The notes under the pieces were generated by a model. That model saw only the letters and a program-made list of their open reading frames with translations. It ran no database searches and was not told the DNA's origin. The translations under genes were made by a program, and so were the position numbers. From a virus (lineage: Duplodnaviria; Heunggongvirae; Uroviricota; Caudoviricetes): a stretch of 41,280 nucleotides of DNA. Where the stretch lies: positions 1-41,280 of IMG/VR virus record IMGVR_UViG_2718218131_000003, one strand, 5' to 3'. Shown piece by piece: positions 1,422-17,349 of the stretch. How positions within the stretch are numbered: position 1 is the stretch's first letter; every line of letters starts with the position of its first letter.

Positions 1422-3797
1422 TTAAAAATCAGCCTGACTCGGGATCAGTTTTTGTATCGTAGCTGTAACGTATTTTGCCTGGTGACGGGCGTCATCCAGT
1501 GCATTGTGGCGCACGCCTTCGAATGGAATAACGGTTCTGGCATCAAAGTCGATTGTTTTTCCCAGCTCAACGATTGTGCGTACATCGCGATCGTTGTGGT
1601 AGCGCCACGGGCAGGGGATGTCCAGACGTTCGTATGAGGTGCGCAAAATTGCGTTATCGAAAGTCGCACCATTACCCCATACCTGAACGAATTTTTCATC
1701 TGAATATTCGTTGATGAACTTCCGAAACTGCGAAAGGGCATCCTTCAGTTTTACCTGGTCTGTTAAAATGGCAGCTCTGGCTTCACTGGACTGCTTCAGC
1801 CACCATTCGATGGTTCCACCGTCAGGAACAGCCCCTGTATTCATTGCGTCAGTCAGACTGATAACGATATAAAATACTGGCCCGATTTCCCCTGTTTGTG
1901 GGTCGAAGAAAACCGCACCAATAACCACGATGGGCGCATTGGTGTTGGTTCCCATTGTTTCAAGGTCGATCATCAGGTGATACCACACTCTGCTGGTGGA
2001 TGTGATAACGTGATGACCGTTCACCGTAATTAAGGGATCCGCCGTCTCGCCAGTTTCACTATCGCTGGCGTGGTCCTGAGCGCTGCCAGCATTCTCCTTG
2101 TGTGGATGTTCAGCGCCTTCCATTTCCTTCGGATCATTTTCCTGAACTTCAACCTGATTCTCTTCATCGAATGTTTCCTGGTATGTTGCGTCGCCCATCA
2201 CCGCGCCACAATCAGGGCAGTTGCCGCCGCCCGTCTGACCGCAGGCGGTGCAGATTTTTTCCGCTTCCTGTTGCGCTACTGGCTCAGGCTGTTTCGTTTC
2301 TGGCTCGTTTTGTAACCCCTTCACCCATTTCGGATCATTCGGGTCGCTAATCCCCTCAACAAATTCTCCGCGAGAGGCAGCAAGCAACTTATCGGCGTCA
2401 GGCTGGCTGATATTGGCTGCCTGCATAATTTTGTTTACTTCGTCAGCGGTAACTTTTACCTGATAAACCGGATCTATCTGTGCTTGAGTATCCAGCGATT
2501 GCGTGCCCTGCCGATGTTCAGTTGTATCCGGTTCCATTGTTTCAGCCGTTGCCTGCTCACCTGCCATTGCGTCAGACGGTTGTGATTTTTCCTCATTATT
2601 TTTTTCTTCTTCTGTTTCGTGTTCAGCAGCCAGTTCGCGGTTAACTTCTTCCAGAATATCTTTTTCCGGTGTATGTCGTGCAGCAGCGAGAGTTTCCTCG
2701 GAAGGGTTCTCGTGATCAGTCTCTGTTAAATTGGCGTTGATATACCCCTGAAGACGTCCCGGGTAATGATAAAACTCAGGGTGTGCGCTCCGGATAAGTG
2801 CAAAAATAGCGGCGCGGGAATAATCCAGGATACCCGGGATTGCGCGAAGTGCTGCGGACCATTCTTTGAACGGACTTTCTTTCTTCCGGACGATTTCTTT
2901 TGCGCGACGATAAACGCTGCCCGGAATTTCATAAATATTAAAATCCATCGGAAGTGTGGCCGCTGCAATCTCCACATCCAGCGTATCGAAGGTGTGTACT
3001 AAATTCGGATTGCGATCGGTTTTGTTCCCTCCACCGGCATTAGCACCGGAAGCCGTGCGGGTGATGCGTGAAACACGATTCCCTTTCATCCACTCTTTTG
3101 TCAGCAGACCGCGATCGGTGTAGTCAGCGCCCAGGTATGCTTCGAAAAAAGCAGTCATTAGCCCCAGGTCTGAATTACCAGGATTAGGGAAAACTTTGTC
3201 AGTATCACGCACCAGTTTATGGAGATCGCGAATTTCCAGTGGTTCGAGTTGCGCTGCTTTATTTGAGATGGCCAGCGCGGTAACAGCGGGAAGTTTTTCA
3301 TCCTGTGCGTTATGTAATGCGCGCAGTTCGTCCCGCGAAACGTGCGTTACTGGTTTTTCGCTGTTGTGTTGCGCCAGCCATCGAACAGGCAGAATCTGAC
3401 CTGAAACTGGCAGGAGCATATTCTCCTCAATCTCAGTCATGTCTTCACCGTTGACGTTGGTATTGTCAGTGCTGGCTGGTTTGTCCTGAACAGAGGGCAC
3501 GATAAGTACCATTGTGATACCATCTTCCCCGCCTTTTTCGTATCGGTTGCAGAATTCGGTATCAAACACGCCTTCCGGAGGAAGGTCATTCACAACGGGT
3601 AAATGGACGCGAACAGGTTTTTTAAAATCCTCTTCGTCAAATCCTGCATCGTCCATTGCGACAACACCGCGTGATATTGCAACCGATAATTTTTTTGCTG
3701 TGCGCCAGTAAAAACCGCCTTTAATCCCAAGACGTTTTCTGACTTTGTCATTTTTGGCTTCGTAATATAGTGCAATTTCTTCTTTATCAGTGCTCAT
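1422..3797 (-). CDS. phage exonuclease with C-terminal DEDDh (DnaQ-like) 3'-5' exonuclease domain
   Basis: 791-aa ORF; C-terminal motifs IDLETMG (Exo I) and HNALDDA (Exo III); long acidic low-complexity linker; N-terminal domain of unknown function. Confidence 0.75.
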
Positions 3798-4263: not shown

Positions 4264-4432
4264 TATCGCGTCCTCAACAATGAATTTTGTGATGCGGTGC
4301 CTGGTGCCTCCAGGTGACGTTAACCAGTTAACAATTAACGCCGGATACAGAGAATCCACCCATAACACTGTTTTTGGTTTTAACTGTTCCGCGTGCGCTT
4401 AGCCGCATTCACCGCATCACAAAATTCACTTT

Positions 4433-4490
4433 AAAAAGGGCGGCAGAGCAGTCACGGAGTAAAACTGATACCGCCAAACGTCACCAGAAA
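4433..4490 (-). ncRNA. dicF: DicF small RNA (ftsZ-targeting sRNA)
   Basis: Reverse complement of 4438..4490 reads TTTCTGGTGACGTTTGGCGGTATCAGTTTTACTCCGTGACTGCTCTGCCGCCC, followed by a T-tract (intrinsic terminator hairpin GGCGG...CCGCC); matches DicF as recalled; sits between the ydfA-side genes and dicB as in the dicB operon. Confidence 0.8.
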
Positions 4491-6771: not shown

Positions 6772-7783
6772 AAAGGTGAAAACCGGCAGTTCATCCAGTA
6801 AGTCTGTATTGACCTGGCTTGCTGATATGTGCGGTGCCGATTTGTGTGCATACCCGTCTGTATCTGCACTGGCAGAAGTAACGGAACTGAACAAAAAGAC
6901 TGTGCAGGACAGCTTACGACACCTGATGGAGATTGGGTTAATTGTTGATACCGGTGAGAGAAAAGGCAGAACAAAGCAAATTGTGGTGTACCGACTTATC
7001 GGTGTAGAAGAAAGTGTTGCCGAGCCTGAATACACCCAAAAACGGGAGTCTTTAAAGGTGGGTAAAATTGGTGCTGTTAATAAAAACAGTACCGAAAATG
7101 GTTATGTTTCAGCACAAAACAGACCCAAAAACGGAACTCTTAGCTGCATGGAAAATAACCAAAGACACCCAAATTTTCCATCAAAGACACCCAAAAACGG
7201 ATCACGGAACCCAAAGGAACCCAAAGATCTAAACCCCACACATAACGCACGCGAGAGTGCTCCGACCAGTGAGCAGGAAGTTTTATCGTTACAGGCAGCA
7301 CCCCTTGTATTCCTGGATGGCCTGAGCGAACCCATCGGAAAATTTCCGATGACCGATAGCTGGTATCCGTCACGGGATTTTCGACGACGGGCTGCGTTGT
7401 GGGGGATGGCTTTGCCGGAGACAGAATTTACACCTGCTGAACTTGCCGCCTTCCGGGACTACTGGGCAGCGGAGGGGAAAGTGTTTACGCAGATTCAGTG
7501 GGAGCAGAAATTCGCCCGTCACGTAAATCACGTCAGGGCGCAGGTTAAACCAGTCAGCAAGGGGGGGAGCCATGCAGCAGCACCAGGTGGCACCGCATCA
7601 CGGGCAGTTCAGGAAATTCGGGCAGCACGTGAGCAGTGGGAACGTGAAAACGGATTTATCAGCGACGGAAACGGCGTGGAAGCTGTGGGAACTCATGGGG
7701 GATGTTTATTCGAACCGCTGGACCCAGAAGAACGGGGTCGCACCTTCGAAGCTCTGGATTGCACAGATTGGCGCGATGACTGA
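6743..7783 (+). CDS. replication initiation protein (O-like, N-terminal HTH); 3' end uncertain
   Basis: ATG at 6743 (MSIDALRWAKK...); N-terminal winged-helix region typical of phage replication initiators; C-terminal ~70 codons overlap the P-like ORF in another frame (see finding). Confidence 0.55.
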   Translation: MSIDALRWAKKVKTGSSSSKSVLTWLADMCGADLCAYPSVSALAEVTELNKKTVQDSLRHLMEIGLIVDTGERKGRTKQIVVYRLIGVEESVAEPEYTQKRESLKVGKIGAVNKNSTENGYVSAQNRPKNGTLSCMENNQRHPNFPSKTPKNGSRNPKEPKDLNPTHNARESAPTSEQEVLSLQAAPLVFLDGLSEPIGKFPMTDSWYPSRDFRRRAALWGMALPETEFTPAELAAFRDYWAAEGKVFTQIQWEQKFARHVNHVRAQVKPVSKGGSHAAAPGGTASRAVQEIRAAREQWERENGFISDGNGVEAVGTHGGCLFEPLDPEERGRTFEALDCTDWRDD

Positions 7784-11567: not shown

Positions 11568-11813
11568 ATTCATTACGATATGGGAATTCCCATATCGGGT
11601 AAAAACGGTTTGCGGGAAAAGGAGAGTTAAGTAGAATTGCTGCGGGTGCTTGAGGCTATCTGTCTCAGGCATGAACACCAAAAGGCAGATAGAGAAAAGC
11701 CCCAGTTAACATTACGCGTCCTGCAAGACGCTTAACATTAATCTGAGGCCCAATCTATGTCTCACAAATGTAGGTTAGCCTCTTACGTGCCGAAAGGCAA
11801 GGAGAAGCAGGCT

Positions 11814-11969
11814 ATGAAGCAGCAAAAGGCGATGTTAATCGCCCTGATCGTCATCTGTTTAACCGTCATAGTGACGGCACTGGTAACGAGGAAAGACCTC
11901 TGCGAGGTACGAATCCGAACCGGCCAGACGGAGGTTGCTGTCTTCACAGCTTACGAACCTGAGGAGTAA
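11814..11969 (+). CDS. hokD: Hok/Gef-family type I toxin (HokD/RelF-like)
   Basis: 51-aa product MKQQKAMLIALIVICLTVIVTALVTRKDLCEVRIRTGQTEVAVFTAYEPEE matches HokD (RelF) as recalled; AAGGAGAAG RBS upstream; the in-frame upstream extension from 11757 may be a mok-like leader. Confidence 0.85.
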   Translation: MKQQKAMLIALIVICLTVIVTALVTRKDLCEVRIRTGQTEVAVFTAYEPEE

Positions 11970-13855: not shown

Positions 13856-14221
13856 ATGACTGAACGCATAGAATTTGTTTTGCCTTACCCGCCAACGGTG
13901 AACACTTACTGGCGACGTCGTGGCAGCACATATTTTGTATCAAAAGCCGGTGAGCGTTATCGCCGTGATGTGGCGCTTATTGTTCGCCAGCAGCGGCTGA
14001 AATTAAACCTGTCCGGAAGGCTGGCGATAAAGATTATTGCAGAGCCACCGGATAAGCGTCGTCGTGACCTGGACAATATCCTGAAAGCACCACTGGATGC
14101 GCTGACGCATGCCGGACTTCTCATAGACGACGAGCAGTTTGATGAAATCAATATTGTGCGCGGTCAGCTCGTTCCTGGGGGGCGGCTGGGCGTGAAGATT
14201 TACAAAATTGAGAGTGAGTGA
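13856..14221 (+). CDS. rusA: Holliday junction resolvase RusA
   Basis: 121-aa product with RusA blocks (LPYPPTVNTYWRRRG...PDKRRRDLDNILKAPLDALTHAGLLIDDEQ) aligning to RusA as recalled. Confidence 0.85.
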   Translation: MTERIEFVLPYPPTVNTYWRRRGSTYFVSKAGERYRRDVALIVRQQRLKLNLSGRLAIKIIAEPPDKRRRDLDNILKAPLDALTHAGLLIDDEQFDEINIVRGQLVPGGRLGVKIYKIESE

Positions 14222-14772
14222 TCGTAAATATGATATATCCGGAAATTACAGGCAAAAGCGGCGAGCATTTACGTCTAAAAACGCTGGAAGCCGTCTGGAT
14301 CCAGGGGAAATTACGGATGTGGGGGCGTTGGTCGTATATAGGTGGTGGCAAACCAGGAAATATGTTCAATCAGTTGCTGACATCCAAAAAACTGACAAAA
14401 ACCGCGATCAATGAAGCCCTGCGTAGAATCAGGGAGTCAGGGATTGATAAACCAGAGCTGGAAGCATTCTTGCGAGAGATGATCGCTGGCAGACAGAAGA
14501 GCTGGTTGTCTCACTGTACTGATGCAGAGGCGTTACGCATTGATGGGGTGATAAGTAAAGCGCTTGCACGTTATCCTGGATTGATTGATATCCTGCGGCA
14601 AAGGTACGAAGGGCGGGGGATGAGTAAACGCAAAATGGCTGAATTGTTGAATGAGGTTCACCCTGAGTGGTGCTATGCAACATGCCGCAATCGTATAGAT
14701 ATGTGGCTGAGAATAGCTGAGTTTATTCTGTATCCACTGATGCGAGATGCATTTTCTTTTACTGACGCTTAG
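14218..14772 (+). CDS. late-gene antiterminator (Q-like), assigned mainly by position
   Basis: 184-aa ORF overlapping the rusA stop; followed by an intrinsic terminator and then the late region, the classic Q / late promoter / tR-prime arrangement; sequence-level assignment not verified. Confidence 0.5.
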   Translation: MIVNMIYPEITGKSGEHLRLKTLEAVWIQGKLRMWGRWSYIGGGKPGNMFNQLLTSKKLTKTAINEALRRIRESGIDKPELEAFLREMIAGRQKSWLSHCTDAEALRIDGVISKALARYPGLIDILRQRYEGRGMSKRKMAELLNEVHPEWCYATCRNRIDMWLRIAEFILYPLMRDAFSFTDA

Positions 14773-14939: not shown

Positions 14940-14961
14940 CCCGCTTTATGCGGGTTTTTTT
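14940..14961 (+). terminator. intrinsic terminator (tR-prime-like) downstream of the Q-like gene
   Basis: Hairpin CCCGC-TTTAT-GCGGG followed by TTTTTTT (14955..14961). Confidence 0.65.
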
Positions 14962-15102
14962 ATGCCTGAAAAACGGCACAGAACATTAAACGCGCTGGTT
15001 GTTGTGAATACTGGTCTTTCAGCTTGCTGGCTTTTTCGACAAGAGGTATTGGTATGTCACGTTAACCGGAAAAGGGAAAAAGGCATACTAAAACAGCAGG
15101 AT

Positions 15103-15432: not shown

Positions 15433-16481
15433 ATGGCTAATACTGTAAAAATATCCAGTTGTGAGTTAATCAACGCTGATTGCCTGGAATTTATCCAGAC
15501 CTTACCGGAAAATTCTGTCGATCTGATAGTCACAGACCCGCCATACTTTAAAGTGAAGCCCGAGGGCTGGGATAACCAGTGGAAGGGCGACGATGATTAC
15601 CTGAAATGGCTGGATCAGTGTCTGGCGCAATTCTGGCGGGTACTGAAACCTGCCGGAAGTCTCTACCTGTTCTGTGGTCATCGCCTGGCATCTGACACCG
15701 AAATCATGATGCGTGAGCGCTTTAATGTGCTGAACCACATTATCTGGGCGAAGCCGTCCGGACGCTGGAACGGGTGCAATAAGGAAAGTCTGCGGGCGTA
15801 TTTTCCGGCAACAGAGCGCATTCTGTTTGCAGAACATTATCAGGGACCGTATCGCCCGAAAGATGATGGCTATGTGGAGCAGGGGCGCGAGCTAAAACAG
15901 CACGTCATGGCCCCGCTGATTTCTTACTTTCGTGATGCGCGTAAATCACTGGGAATAACGTCAAAACAGATAGCGGAAGCCACCGGAAAGAAAAACATGG
16001 CTTCGCACTGGTTTGGTATCAGTCAGTGGCAGTTACCGAACGAGGGTGATTACAACAAATTGCAGGCGTTGTTTGCGCGTGTTGCGGCAGAAAAACATCA
16101 GCGCGGGGAACTGGAAAAGCCACACCACCAGCTGGTCAGCACATACAGTGAGCTGAACCGGCAGTATACGGAACTGCTGAGTGAATATAAAAATTTGCGG
16201 CGGTATTTCGGTGTGACGGCGCAGGTTCCGTACACCGATGTCTGGACGCATAAACCGGTGCAGTACTATCCAGGGAAACATCCGTGCGAAAAACCGGCAG
16301 AAATGCTGCAGCAGATAATCAACGCGAGCAGTCGTCCGGGAGACCTGGTTGCAGATTTTTTATGGGTTCAGGTTCAACGGTAAAAGCGGCGATGGCACTG
16401 GGGCGTTGTGCGATTGGTGTTGAGCTGGAGACCGGACGCTTTGAACAGACAGTCAGGGAAGTTCAGGATTTAATCGTTTGA
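15433..16481 (+). pseudogene. DNA N6-adenine methyltransferase (DPPY motif), split by a frameshift at a T6 tract
   Basis: ORF 15433..16383 carries DPPY (motif IV) and ends ...DLVADFLWVQVQR; ORF 16284..16481 in another frame carries FFMGSGSTVKAAMALG (motif I, FxGxG). Frames meet at TTTTTT 16356..16361; one additional T would give a continuous ~349-aa enzyme. Confidence 0.75.
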
Positions 16482-16530
16482 AACGGATGAGATTGCAGAA
16501 TTAATTACGCACCATTATTATTCTGCTCCC

Positions 16531-16606
16531 GGCCCTTTAGCTCAGTGGTGAGAGCGAGCGACTCATAATCGCCAGGTCGCTGGTTCAAATCCAGCAAGGG
16601 CCACCA
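16531..16606 (+). tRNA. tRNA with CAU anticodon, ileX-like (tRNA-Ile2, lysidine type) or Met
   Basis: 76 nt, acceptor stem GGCCCTT/AAGGGCC, anticodon loop CTCATAA, GTTCAAATC T-loop, 3' CCA; closely resembles E. coli ileX as recalled. Confidence 0.8.
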
Positions 16607-16607
16607 A

Positions 16608-16684
16608 CCGCCACTAGCTCATCAGGAAAGAGCGTCAACCCTTTAAGTTGAGTGTGCGAGGTTCGAGTCCCCGGTGGCGGTCCA
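16608..16684 (+). tRNA. tRNA, atypical; anticodon loop CCTTTAA (UUU/Lys if canonical), isotype uncertain
   Basis: 77 nt; acceptor CCGCCAC/GTGGCGG, D-stem GCTC/GAGC, anticodon stem TCAAC/GTTGA, T-loop TTCGAGT, 3' CCA; position 33 is C rather than the near-universal U and C1-G72 starts the acceptor stem. Confidence 0.5.
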
Positions 16685-16686
16685 GT

Positions 16687-16762
<76 letters not shown>

Positions 16763-16765
16763 TAT

Positions 16766-16840
<75 letters not shown>

Positions 16841-17048
16841 GTTAGAGTCTTTCGGTCTGCGATGATGGGAAATCCCGGAGTGACTGAAAGACGTTTAGGT
16901 TATGAATGATCGCCTTTTTTTTGCAAAATTGCTGTGCAGAAATACCAACCTTCGGGCAGGCGATCATTCATAAGCACTCTGCTTTTATTCCGATTAACTG
17001 TGGGTGGTTTGTTGGATAGAGTGCTTTCCTGACTGTAGATCCAATTTC

Positions 17049-17073
17049 GCCCGCTTTTGCGGGCTTTTCTTTT
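17049..17073 (+). terminator. intrinsic terminator downstream of the tRNA array
   Basis: Hairpin GCCCGC-TTTT-GCGGGC followed by TTTTCTTTT. Confidence 0.6.
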
Positions 17074-17133
17074 CAAATCCCTTTCATCTCTCAGTGTAAA
17101 ACTACGCCATCCGTTATTTGCGGAGGTGAGGCT

Positions 17134-17349
17134 ATGAAATCCATGGACAAAATTTCAACGGGCATTGCCTACGGCACCTCCGCAGGCAGTGCTGGCTACT
17201 GGTTTTTACAGTGGCTTGATCAAGTCAGTCCGTCACAGTGGGCTGCGATTGGTGTACTGGGGAGTCTGATTCTGGGCTTCCTGACTTATCTGACAAATCT
17301 GTACTTCAAAATCAGAGAAGACAAGCGTAAGGCTGCACGGGGAGAGTAA
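17134..17349 (+). CDS. S: class II holin (phage 21 S-type pinholin) with dual-start motif
   Basis: 71-aa product [71 protein letters not shown]; Met1-Lys-Ser-Met4 dual start and two TM segments as in S21. Confidence 0.85.

Follow-up and report, generated by a model that had tools for sequence, protein, structure and literature searches.

The perfect inverted repeat found between the tRNA genes and the lysis genes of this prophage is the middle third of a three-hairpin element, a larger context that was missed in the initial annotation of the sequence. The element lies in a non-coding block of approximately 235 nt (16841-17075), within which the hairpins, here designated H1, H2, and H3, are followed in that order by an intrinsic terminator. 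It is very probable that the hairpins form a strand-specific RNA structure that is under selection and tied to the tRNA operon of the phage, and that is unannotated and undescribed in the sources searched.

The window, the whole stretch of DNA that was analysed, is 41,280 nt long and is a lambdoid prophage. The features of interest start, in map order, with genes for RusA (13856-14221) and a Q-type antiterminator (DUF1133 / Phage_antitermQ; 14218-14772), followed by a pR'-type leader terminator at about 14940-14965, a frameshifted DNA methylase gene (15433-16481), four tRNA genes (16531-16840), and a non-coding interval of 293 nt (16841-17133). The lysis region begins at 17134 and encodes a phage-21-type holin, a DUF1327 protein, lysozyme, and Rz. 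The holin gene (17134-17349, + strand; Pfam PF04971, E = 1.4e-35) is the first of the lysis cassette and is part of the context, not of the element. The site is the late-gene leader, between Q and the holin gene.

The four tRNA genes are all on the + strand and were identified by ARAGORN and the Rfam tRNA model as tRNA-Met(CAT) at 16531-16606, tRNA-Lys(TTT) at 16608-16684, tRNA-Thr(TGT) at 16687-16762, and tRNA-Gly(TCC) at 16766-16840. The block starts immediately 3' of tRNA-Gly, the last gene of this operon. A sigma-70 promoter for the operon is predicted at 16493..16521 on the + strand, from a reading of the sequence and from the retention of the layout in relatives. It has a -35 of TTGCAG (16493-16498), a 17-nt spacer, and a -10 of TATTAT (16516-16521), after which there is a GC-rich discriminator. 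A generic promoter scan missed it, the -35 hexamer matching at only 3/6 positions. The same TTGCAx-17-TATTAT layout immediately precedes tRNA-Met in six contexts, the upstream DNA of the relatives otherwise being entirely different and consisting of a methylase, a terminator, or other genes.

At the other end of the unit is an intrinsic terminator (17049..17074, + strand), made up of a hairpin at 17049-17064 and a T run, with the sequence GCCCGC-TTTT-GCGGGC and then TTTTCTTTTC. This hairpin is the only + strand terminator found by the terminator scan in the interval, and the T run ends 60 nt ahead of the holin start codon. Relatives have terminators at the same position that are not homologous to it, for example CCTCGC-TTCG-GCGAGG or GGCTGCC...GGCGGCC, and with the strict detector used a terminator is the next feature after the element in 58 of 77 distinct loci. 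A terminator is needed here because transcription from the tRNA-operon promoter would otherwise reach the holin gene. With the promoter upstream of tRNA-Met and the terminator downstream, the repeat is placed inside the tRNA transcription unit; the element (16841-17048) is on the same strand as the tRNAs, between the last of them and the terminator and downstream of the operon promoter, which is the position of a trailer. Judged from its sequence, and with its promoter a predicted one, the combination of promoter, four tRNAs, H1-H2-H3, and terminator is an autonomous unit set into the late leader in the manner of a moron.

The repeat had been reported as a perfect 15-bp one located between the tRNA array and the lysis genes, and on re-examination it does lie after tRNA-Gly and before the holin gene. 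Both arms are present, TTATGAATGATCGCC at 16900-16914 and GGCGATCATTCATAA at 16959-16973, and T16915-A16958 adds one further pair beyond the 15-mers. The arms are thus 16 nt each (16900-16915 / 16958-16973), with 100% complementarity and 42 nt between them. The run of eight T residues that had been placed at the start of the spacer exists at 16915-16922, but its first T is a base of the stem. Among the perfect inverted repeats of the 41-kb window this one ranks second in length, the sole longer one being a 19 nt repeat at 4281-4428. When the window was shuffled 40 times with its dinucleotide content preserved, the longest perfect repeats of similar spacing reached 10-14 nt. RNA folding, which had been proposed as a check on the repeat, gives -31.6 kcal/mol for 16895-16980 (z = -4.8) and -87.4 kcal/mol for the whole block 16841-17075 (z = -5.85), in keeping with a structured RNA.

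H2 (16900..16973, + strand) is the hairpin formed by the reported repeat and is seen in both folds and covariation. Its outer stem of 16 bp, which is 16-18 bp among relatives, encloses a small junction composed of an 8 bp hairpin (16918-16925 / 16935-16942) with a 9-nt loop and a C(UUCG)G-type mini-hairpin (16949-16956). The H2 loop UUGCAAAAUUGCUGUG is highly conserved. Across 28 distinct variants the pairing holds in 94.6% of cells, against 30-54% when the partners are slid, and the covariation score of 0.209 compares with 0.129 in shuffles and was matched by none of 500. Seven pairs have changed on both sides among these 28 variants. In phage HK639 the double changes are A-T to T-A, T-A to G-C, and C-G to T-A, and the further differences amount to one G-U pair and one A.C mismatch. 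In another relative (L099), the interior of H2 has been swapped entirely for a plain 18-bp hairpin with 3 G-U pairs. A search for the repeat in related phages had also been suggested; the paired arms are indeed kept in diverged relatives, through compensatory and G-U changes.

H1 (16847..16892, + strand; MFE and consensus folds) begins 6 nt past the tRNA-Gly CCA. Its 11-bp outer stem is followed by an asymmetric internal loop, an inner stem of GGG/CCC, and an apical loop that varies. The outer stem covaries, with UC/GA changed to CU/AG, U-A changed to C-G in one variant (L222), and GUC/GAC changed to GCC/GGC in Yokenella. The internal loop, in which UGCGAUGAU at 16858-16866 faces GGAGU at 16877-16881, is almost invariant, its letters being unchanged in 31 of 34 genuine variants, and the GGG/CCC stem shows nearly as little variation. 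On the basis of its sequence, this loop can be read as a k-turn. The C stem would run to C16860-G16880, the bulge would be GAU (16861-16863), the G.A pairs would be G16864.A16879 and A16865.G16878, and the NC stem would start with U.G and continue with GGG/CCC. The letters of the two G.A pairs are invariant in all 34 genuine variants, and the G16859-U16881 wobble is present in every sequence. In Yokenella the first pair of the NC stem is changed from U.G to A.G, a pair that is disfavoured in a Watson-Crick helix.

In H3 (16974..17024, + strand; folds and covariation), a lower stem of 8 bp is separated by an asymmetric 7-nt loop from the upper stem, whose 6 + 4 bp flank a U.U mismatch and which is capped by the hexaloop GUGGGU. 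The pairing of 29 variants, which belong to three deeply different subtypes, holds in 89.9% of cells, and sliding the partners lowers this to 35-51%. Covariation scores 0.295, compared with 0.209 in shuffles, of which 0/500 matched it. The fold is kept with three unrelated lower stems in unrelated flanks. The 3' strand of H3, GGGTGGTTTGTTGG (17002-17015; also given as GGGUGGUUUGUUGG), is kept in 23 of the 29 aligned variants, and the remaining ones have a loop G replaced or a single base different. Its 5' partner drifts, being CCGAU, CCAAU, CCAGU, CCAAC, CCUGA, or others, and makes use of the tolerance of G-U pairing. Such a constant 3' strand facing a drifting 5' partner suggests that this near-invariant G/U-rich strand has a second job besides pairing. 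A search of the window for sites complementary to the 14-mer found none beyond chance.

RNAalifold, applied to 17 representative variants, recovered H1, H2, H3, and the terminator, with 13 pairs across H1-H3 showing compensatory changes; since the variants fall into few clades, such counts over-state the number of independent events, while the direction of the evidence is still consistent. The consensus energy is -66.2 kcal/mol on the + strand, compared with -31.3 on the minus strand, where H3 has no consensus structure. G-U pairs on the + strand, several of them frequent or without any variation, are numerous in the H2 inner hairpin and in most of the H3 upper stem; on the opposite strand they become A.C mismatches. 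The tRNAs, their promoter, the terminator, and the late operon are likewise on the + strand. Pairing that is confined to the + strand indicates that the element acts as RNA, and rules out that selection acts on a simple DNA palindrome.

The block is non-coding, because near-identical copies have anything from 6 to 9 Ts in the H2 run and the only sizeable + strand ORF ends after 10 codons in HK639. Candidate small ORFs, one of 37 aa on the + strand (16906-17019) and two of 41 and 58 aa on the minus strand, were rejected on these grounds, the frame being broken by the T-run variation and by the early stop in HK639.

Four E. coli phages, including the Stx phage phi467, carry the block at about 95% identity, and the copy in phage HK639 has about 75% identity. 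Of the complete E. coli genomes, 535 of 5426 (~10%) have the block, in all cases on the chromosome with no plasmid copies, and the median is one copy per genome. Most of the E. coli copies are 93-99% identical. Among the matches listed, none of the 60 E. coli records has any annotation under the block. Pattern scans and nhmmer found the block in IMG/VR contigs as well, and identified Shigella flexneri, Enterobacter hormaechei, Phytobacter ursingii, Yokenella regensburgei, and Citrobacter sedlakii as other carriers. Salmonella phage Fels-1 has H2 alone. Across these genera the hairpins have been maintained by compensatory and G-U changes. Known carriers include E. coli 042 (NZ_CP042934.2, near 1,637,689-1,637,922) and, besides phi467 and HK639, phage vB_EcoS-689R5. 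Between the window and HK639, the similarity extends from inside tRNA-Gly to the end of H3, and the terminator of HK639 is unrelated but in the same place.

The hairpins behave as independent, portable modules. The full arrangement of tRNA, H1, H2, H3, and terminator is present in 50 of 77 distinct loci. Where a tRNA is present, other arrangements are tRNA-Gly directly followed by H2 and H3, tRNA with H1 only, and tRNA with H1 and H2, and the first hairpin, whichever it is, always starts 0-8 nt past the tRNA CCA. Loci that have no tRNA include H2 and H3 after a divergent ORF, and H3 alone. The stand-alone H3 is a family of its own, with at least two more types of lower stem. Its copies often come just after a leader terminator of the pR' type or precede an ORF by about 20-100 nt, and one of them has an upstream leader with a weak resemblance to IsrK. 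A blastn search of GenBank phages with the stand-alone H3 consensus gave no match, the query probably being too short. All of the copies with readable neighbours are between a Q-type gene and the holin/endolysin cassette, on the sense strand. STnc100 adjoins the element downstream in HK639, Fels-1, and two further loci (L355 and L127), and in the window the Rfam search found no STnc100.

Taken together, the two readings offered in the initial annotation are partly supported. A long stem-loop RNA, as a processed tRNA-operon trailer or an sRNA, fits the compensatory and G-U changes in the stems, the + strand fold, and the presence of both promoter and terminator. A protein-binding palindrome upstream of the holin gene is not supported, given inner hairpins and many G-U pairs that form on one strand only and an element that travels with tRNA-Gly and not with the holin gene.

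Comparison with known RNAs gave no identity for any of the hairpins. At gathering thresholds, the 4227 Rfam models matched only tRNA, sok, and DicF in the window, and at E <= 10 the region 16780-17140 had only sub-threshold chance matches of <= 20 bits. Searches of the relatives, at both gathering and permissive settings, likewise returned no Rfam family for H1, H2, or H3. An exact-sequence full-text search of the literature for the conserved strings found nothing, nor was anything found in the literature on expression, processing, or chaperone binding of the element; the papers on prophage sRNAs of the Q-to-holin interval describe other RNAs.

Several specific identities were considered and rejected. 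For the Pas sRNAs (PasA, PasB, PasC, PasD1/2), blastn with a word size of 7 between 16761-17140 and the four E2348/69 loci gave only chance matches of 10-16 nt (E >= 0.36). STnc100 / PasD (RF02076) has no match in the window, and its model matches separate, adjacent loci in relatives, making it a neighbour. The convergent sRNAs of Tree et al. are on the opposite strand, and their Rfam models give no match. A T-box is not supported, as H1 is without a specifier loop and there is neither a competing antiterminator nor an Rfam match. A GcvB mimic was considered on account of the shared GGUCUGCGAU and UUUGCAA-UUG, but the alignment score was reached by 55 of 500 shuffles. An internal promoter based on TTGCAA in the H2 loop has no acceptable -10 after it, by inspection or in the promoter scan, and a terminator made from the left arm and the T8 run was dismissed as no hairpin ends at the T run in the terminator scan. 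The repeat is not a MITE, its flanks TTTAGG and GCACTC not being duplicated and the element having a median of one place per genome, always in the same prophage context; nor is it an attachment site, there being no duplication and no dispersal.

The closest parallels are in organisation. In E. coli, 3'ETS-leuZ is the trailer of a tRNA operon and a sponge of RyhB and RybB, and rtT RNA comes from the tyrT operon. By analogy with these, the element lies between the last tRNA and the operon terminator on what would be the same transcript, from which ordinary tRNA 3' processing would free it. In contrast to them, it has no sequence or Rfam relation to either, rtT being an Rfam family without a match here. 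Its ~235 nt and three conserved hairpins put it well beyond 3'ETS-leuZ in length and in degree of structure, and it is phage-borne. 3'ETS-leuZ is itself present in the EPEC data set. A similar analogy may be drawn with the T4 tRNA cluster, which includes two small stable RNAs, species 1 and 2 (rnaC and rnaD), that are structured, co-transcribed with the tRNAs, and freed by tRNA processing. Here the likeness would be one of organisation only, T4 being of another phage family and no sequence relation being expected.

With STnc100/PasD, PasA, PasC, AgvB, AsxR, and the IsrK-/StxS-type pR' leader RNAs, the element shares the niche of the late leader or moron and an end at an intrinsic terminator. 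It differs from the Pas RNAs in having no blastn similarity to the four EPEC Pas loci, PasA and PasC also being on the opposite strand, and from STnc100, AgvB, AsxR, Esr41, and IsrK in that their Rfam models have no match in the window. Unlike the prophage sRNAs of this interval, the element is co-oriented with tRNAs and fused to them. The put RNAs of HK022 and HK639 are, like it, cis-encoded, multi-hairpin, and lambdoid, and HK639 has both elements. The HK639 put-like RNA is 126 nt, about the size of H2 plus H3, but is unrelated in sequence and position; this annotated putL-like RNA closely follows pL, resembles the element nowhere in sequence, and has a weak fold of its own (z = -1.85). A put-type antiterminator was accordingly rejected, the element being in the Q-bearing late operon after tR', where it usually precedes a terminator that stops the transcripts of its own promoter.

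The best explanation, to which we would give an even chance, is that the element is a processed, stable non-coding RNA, the trailer of the tRNA operon, with the repeat as its structural core and with sequence-constrained loops that contact a partner. The operon promoter, joined in lytic growth by Q-modified polymerase, would transcribe through the block. Maturation of the tRNA 3' end would then cut a few nt past the CCA of tRNA-Gly, in the A/U-rich GUUAGA, and so free a trailer of about 230 nt. The 5' end of this trailer would be within 6 nt of a stable stem and its 3' end would be the terminator hairpin. Ends of this kind, each guarded by a hairpin, are those expected of a long-lived RNA, so that the trailer should be stable as a non-coding species. 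H2, with its perfect 16-bp stem, would be the core of the molecule, and the H1 loop, the H2 loop, and the G/U strand of H3 would contact the partner. We thus infer processing, stability, and a trans-acting role, be it as an sRNA, a sponge, or a protein-binding RNA. The location of PasA, PasC, and PasD in the same Q-to-holin interval of EPEC, and of the known prophage sRNA STnc100 next to the element in relatives, is a neighbourhood that fits this explanation. Against a trailer sRNA, classical Hfq-dependent sRNAs have longer U tails than the U4CU4 of this terminator. Against the trailer model in general, HK639 has no room for a promoter ahead of its tRNA, and its tRNA-Gly is degenerate. In addition, H3 alone, H2 with H3, and the Fels-1 copy of H2, where they occur without a tRNA, cannot be trailers and therefore point to a role inside the late mRNA.

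Such a role is the basis of the main rival, a tentative one that is possible although on the unlikely side, in which H1-H3 would be cis-acting processing or stability signals of the Q-dependent late transcript. They would serve both as RNase III or RNase E sites, comparable to those for RNase III between the genes of T7, and as hairpins that protect a 5' or 3' end, separating the tRNAs from the lysis and morphogenesis mRNA and shielding the new 5'-monophosphate end from RNase E. The consistent sense-strand location of the readable copies in the late operon, from Q to the lysis genes, is in accord with this, as are the single modules without tRNA or terminator, some at the short distances before an ORF given above. 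The first hairpin, with its start 0-8 nt past the CCA of the tRNA, is at the place that calls for a stem protecting the 5' end; H2 offers 16-18 continuous bp, and the lower stem, internal loop, and upper stem of H3 have the shape of T7-type RNase III signals. The conservation of the H3 14-mer (23/29), the H1 internal loop, and the H2 loop, however, exceeds what RNase III or a protective hairpin would need. Further, the terminator directly after H3 in most loci means that transcripts from the tRNA promoter never reach an mRNA to protect. The trailer RNA and the cis-element of the late mRNA are not exclusive of each other.

A bolder proposal is that H1-H2-H3 are a new class of phage regulatory RNA, in which the k-turn-like loop and the H3 strand would bind a specific host or phage partner, either as a decoy or sponge, produced along with the phage tRNAs, for an RNA-targeting host defence or a host sRNA, or as a sensor of read-through at the terminator ahead of the holin gene that helps to time lysis. 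This is unlikely to be correct. Also unlikely is a regulatory switch, sensing a signal such as tRNA or translation status or binding a protein and so setting terminator read-through into the holin gene, or alternatively a decoy, again produced along with the tRNAs, that blunts a host defence directed at RNA. The succession of a k-turn-like hairpin, a GGGUGG motif, and a terminator loosely recalls T-box leaders, and the relatives place a terminator, often two in tandem, directly before the lysis genes. For the decoy, some of the tRNA species concerned are targets of anticodon nucleases, and the co-transcribed tRNAs Lys, Met, Thr, and Gly, with Asn added in HK639, include such targets. Against a switch are the Rfam searches, which have no T-box or riboswitch match even at E <= 10, and the absence of an alternative pairing between H3 and the terminator, H3 being closed and stable 24 nt upstream of it. 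H2 and H3 are also found where no terminator follows.

It is equally improbable that the element has no function of its own and is a hitch-hiking spacer, maintained by recent divergence and by recombination at shared linkers. The near-identity of most E. coli copies would allow this, as would the mosaic nature of lambdoid genomes and the coincidence of module boundaries with hairpin edges. Yet the stems have been kept by double substitutions at 75% identity, the L099 H2 has been rebuilt as a different hairpin, and the H3 fold persists on unrelated lower stems and flanks. A role of the DNA itself, whether as a palindrome bound by a protein, as a site of recombination or attachment, or as a miniature inverted-repeat element, is very improbable: the perfect 16-bp repeat adjoins a tRNA 3' end, which is a common integration target, and the H2 outer stem, taken by itself, pairs about as well on one strand as on the other, but the H2 inner hairpin, H1, and H3 need G-U pairs, the consensus fold is lost on the minus strand, the arms change by compensatory substitution and are not kept as a binding motif, target-site duplication is absent, and an element with a median of one copy per genome and none on a plasmid is not dispersed.

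In lambdoid prophages, the region from Q to the lysis genes is known to harbour toxins and tRNAs, together with several sRNAs through which host gene expression is rewired. To this interval is now added a well-supported structured RNA, carried by approximately one in ten complete E. coli genomes, Stx2-phage and EAEC backgrounds included, and by several other enterobacterial genera. Both the RNA family and the stand-alone H3 motif appear to be new, the known kinds being tRNA-trailer RNAs, late-leader prophage sRNAs, and the small RNAs of phage tRNA clusters. As a motif standing on its own, H3 is also widespread among late leaders in other phages. With coordinates, a structure model, and carrier strains available, the question can be tested directly. 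Should tRNA processing release the element as a stable product, phages would have in it a counterpart of the 3'ETS regulators of the host and an echo of the small RNAs of the T4 tRNA cluster.

The third hairpin (H3) of the element, the conserved block of three hairpins H1 to H3, contains the 14-mer GGGUGGUUUGUUGG (window 17002-17015) and recurs as a stand-alone hairpin that is widespread in other phage contigs. Stand-alone copies are found in the loci L134, L168, L163, L339, L341-L344, L346, L348, L350, L354, L355, L357-L359, L361 and L362. They are carried on at least three unrelated lower stems, and are often located directly 3' of a pR'-type leader terminator or closely 5' of an ORF; one subtype is upstream of an ORF starting MKVFIAGPMTN. 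In a second type of trailer, an H1-like hairpin with a putative k-turn comes after the tRNA, and the place of H2 and H3 is taken by a different hairpin, GCATGAGCACTG...CAGTGCTCAGC. This arrangement is present on the minus strands of L274 (about 6857-6929) and L313 (15-62). Within H2 itself, the T run of the loop (window 16915-16922 and its homologues) ranges between T6 and T9 in copies that are nearly identical elsewhere, which is consistent with slippage at an unpaired, non-coding position.

At window 16608-16684, ARAGORN identifies a tRNA-Lys(TTT) whose score with the Rfam tRNA model is only 44 bits, compared with 65 to 74 bits for its three neighbours. Neither the 689R5 record nor the phi467 record has it annotated at the corresponding position, and this tRNA may have diverged or be atypical. 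In HK639, the tRNA-Gly (L001 2912-2991) has an unchanged 3' half and has lost its 5' acceptor strand, and is called by neither ARAGORN nor Rfam. The hairpins have therefore been kept beside a degenerate tRNA. In this phage the tRNA-Asn starts 8 nt downstream of a terminator, thus there is no space for a promoter between them. Upstream of the tRNAs, the DNA methylase gene identified by Pfam (window 15433-16481) is split into two overlapping frames, of 316 aa (Pfam positions 1-188) and 65 aa (Pfam positions 188-219). The ORF is at least 352 aa in the relative L208, and the split appears to result either from a frameshift in a pseudogene or from an error in sequencing.

The longest perfect inverted repeat of the window (19 nt, 4281-4428, arms about 110 nt apart) directly adjoins the DicF gene (4438-4489, minus strand; Rfam, 77 bits). 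The same prophage has a match to the sok antitoxin RNA (11644-11819; Rfam, 120 bits), therefore a hok/sok module is implied. At the holin gene, a perfect 10-nt inverted repeat (17119-17128 / 17175-17184) pairs the Shine-Dalgarno region (TGCGGAGGTG) with holin codons 14-17, adjoining the dual-start MKSM motif. This structure may control translation of the class II holin.

In relatives, copies of the prophage sRNA STnc100 (RF02076) adjoin the element on its downstream side, as at L001 (HK639; 3254-3459), L355 (8805-9005) and L127 (6596-6800). Three are present in the Fels-1 Q-to-holin interval (L364 1273-1486, 1687-1809 and 2810-3028), and there is no STnc100 in the window. Given the copies 3' of the element and the three in Fels-1, the late leader appears to be built as an array of units, each an RNA plus a terminator.
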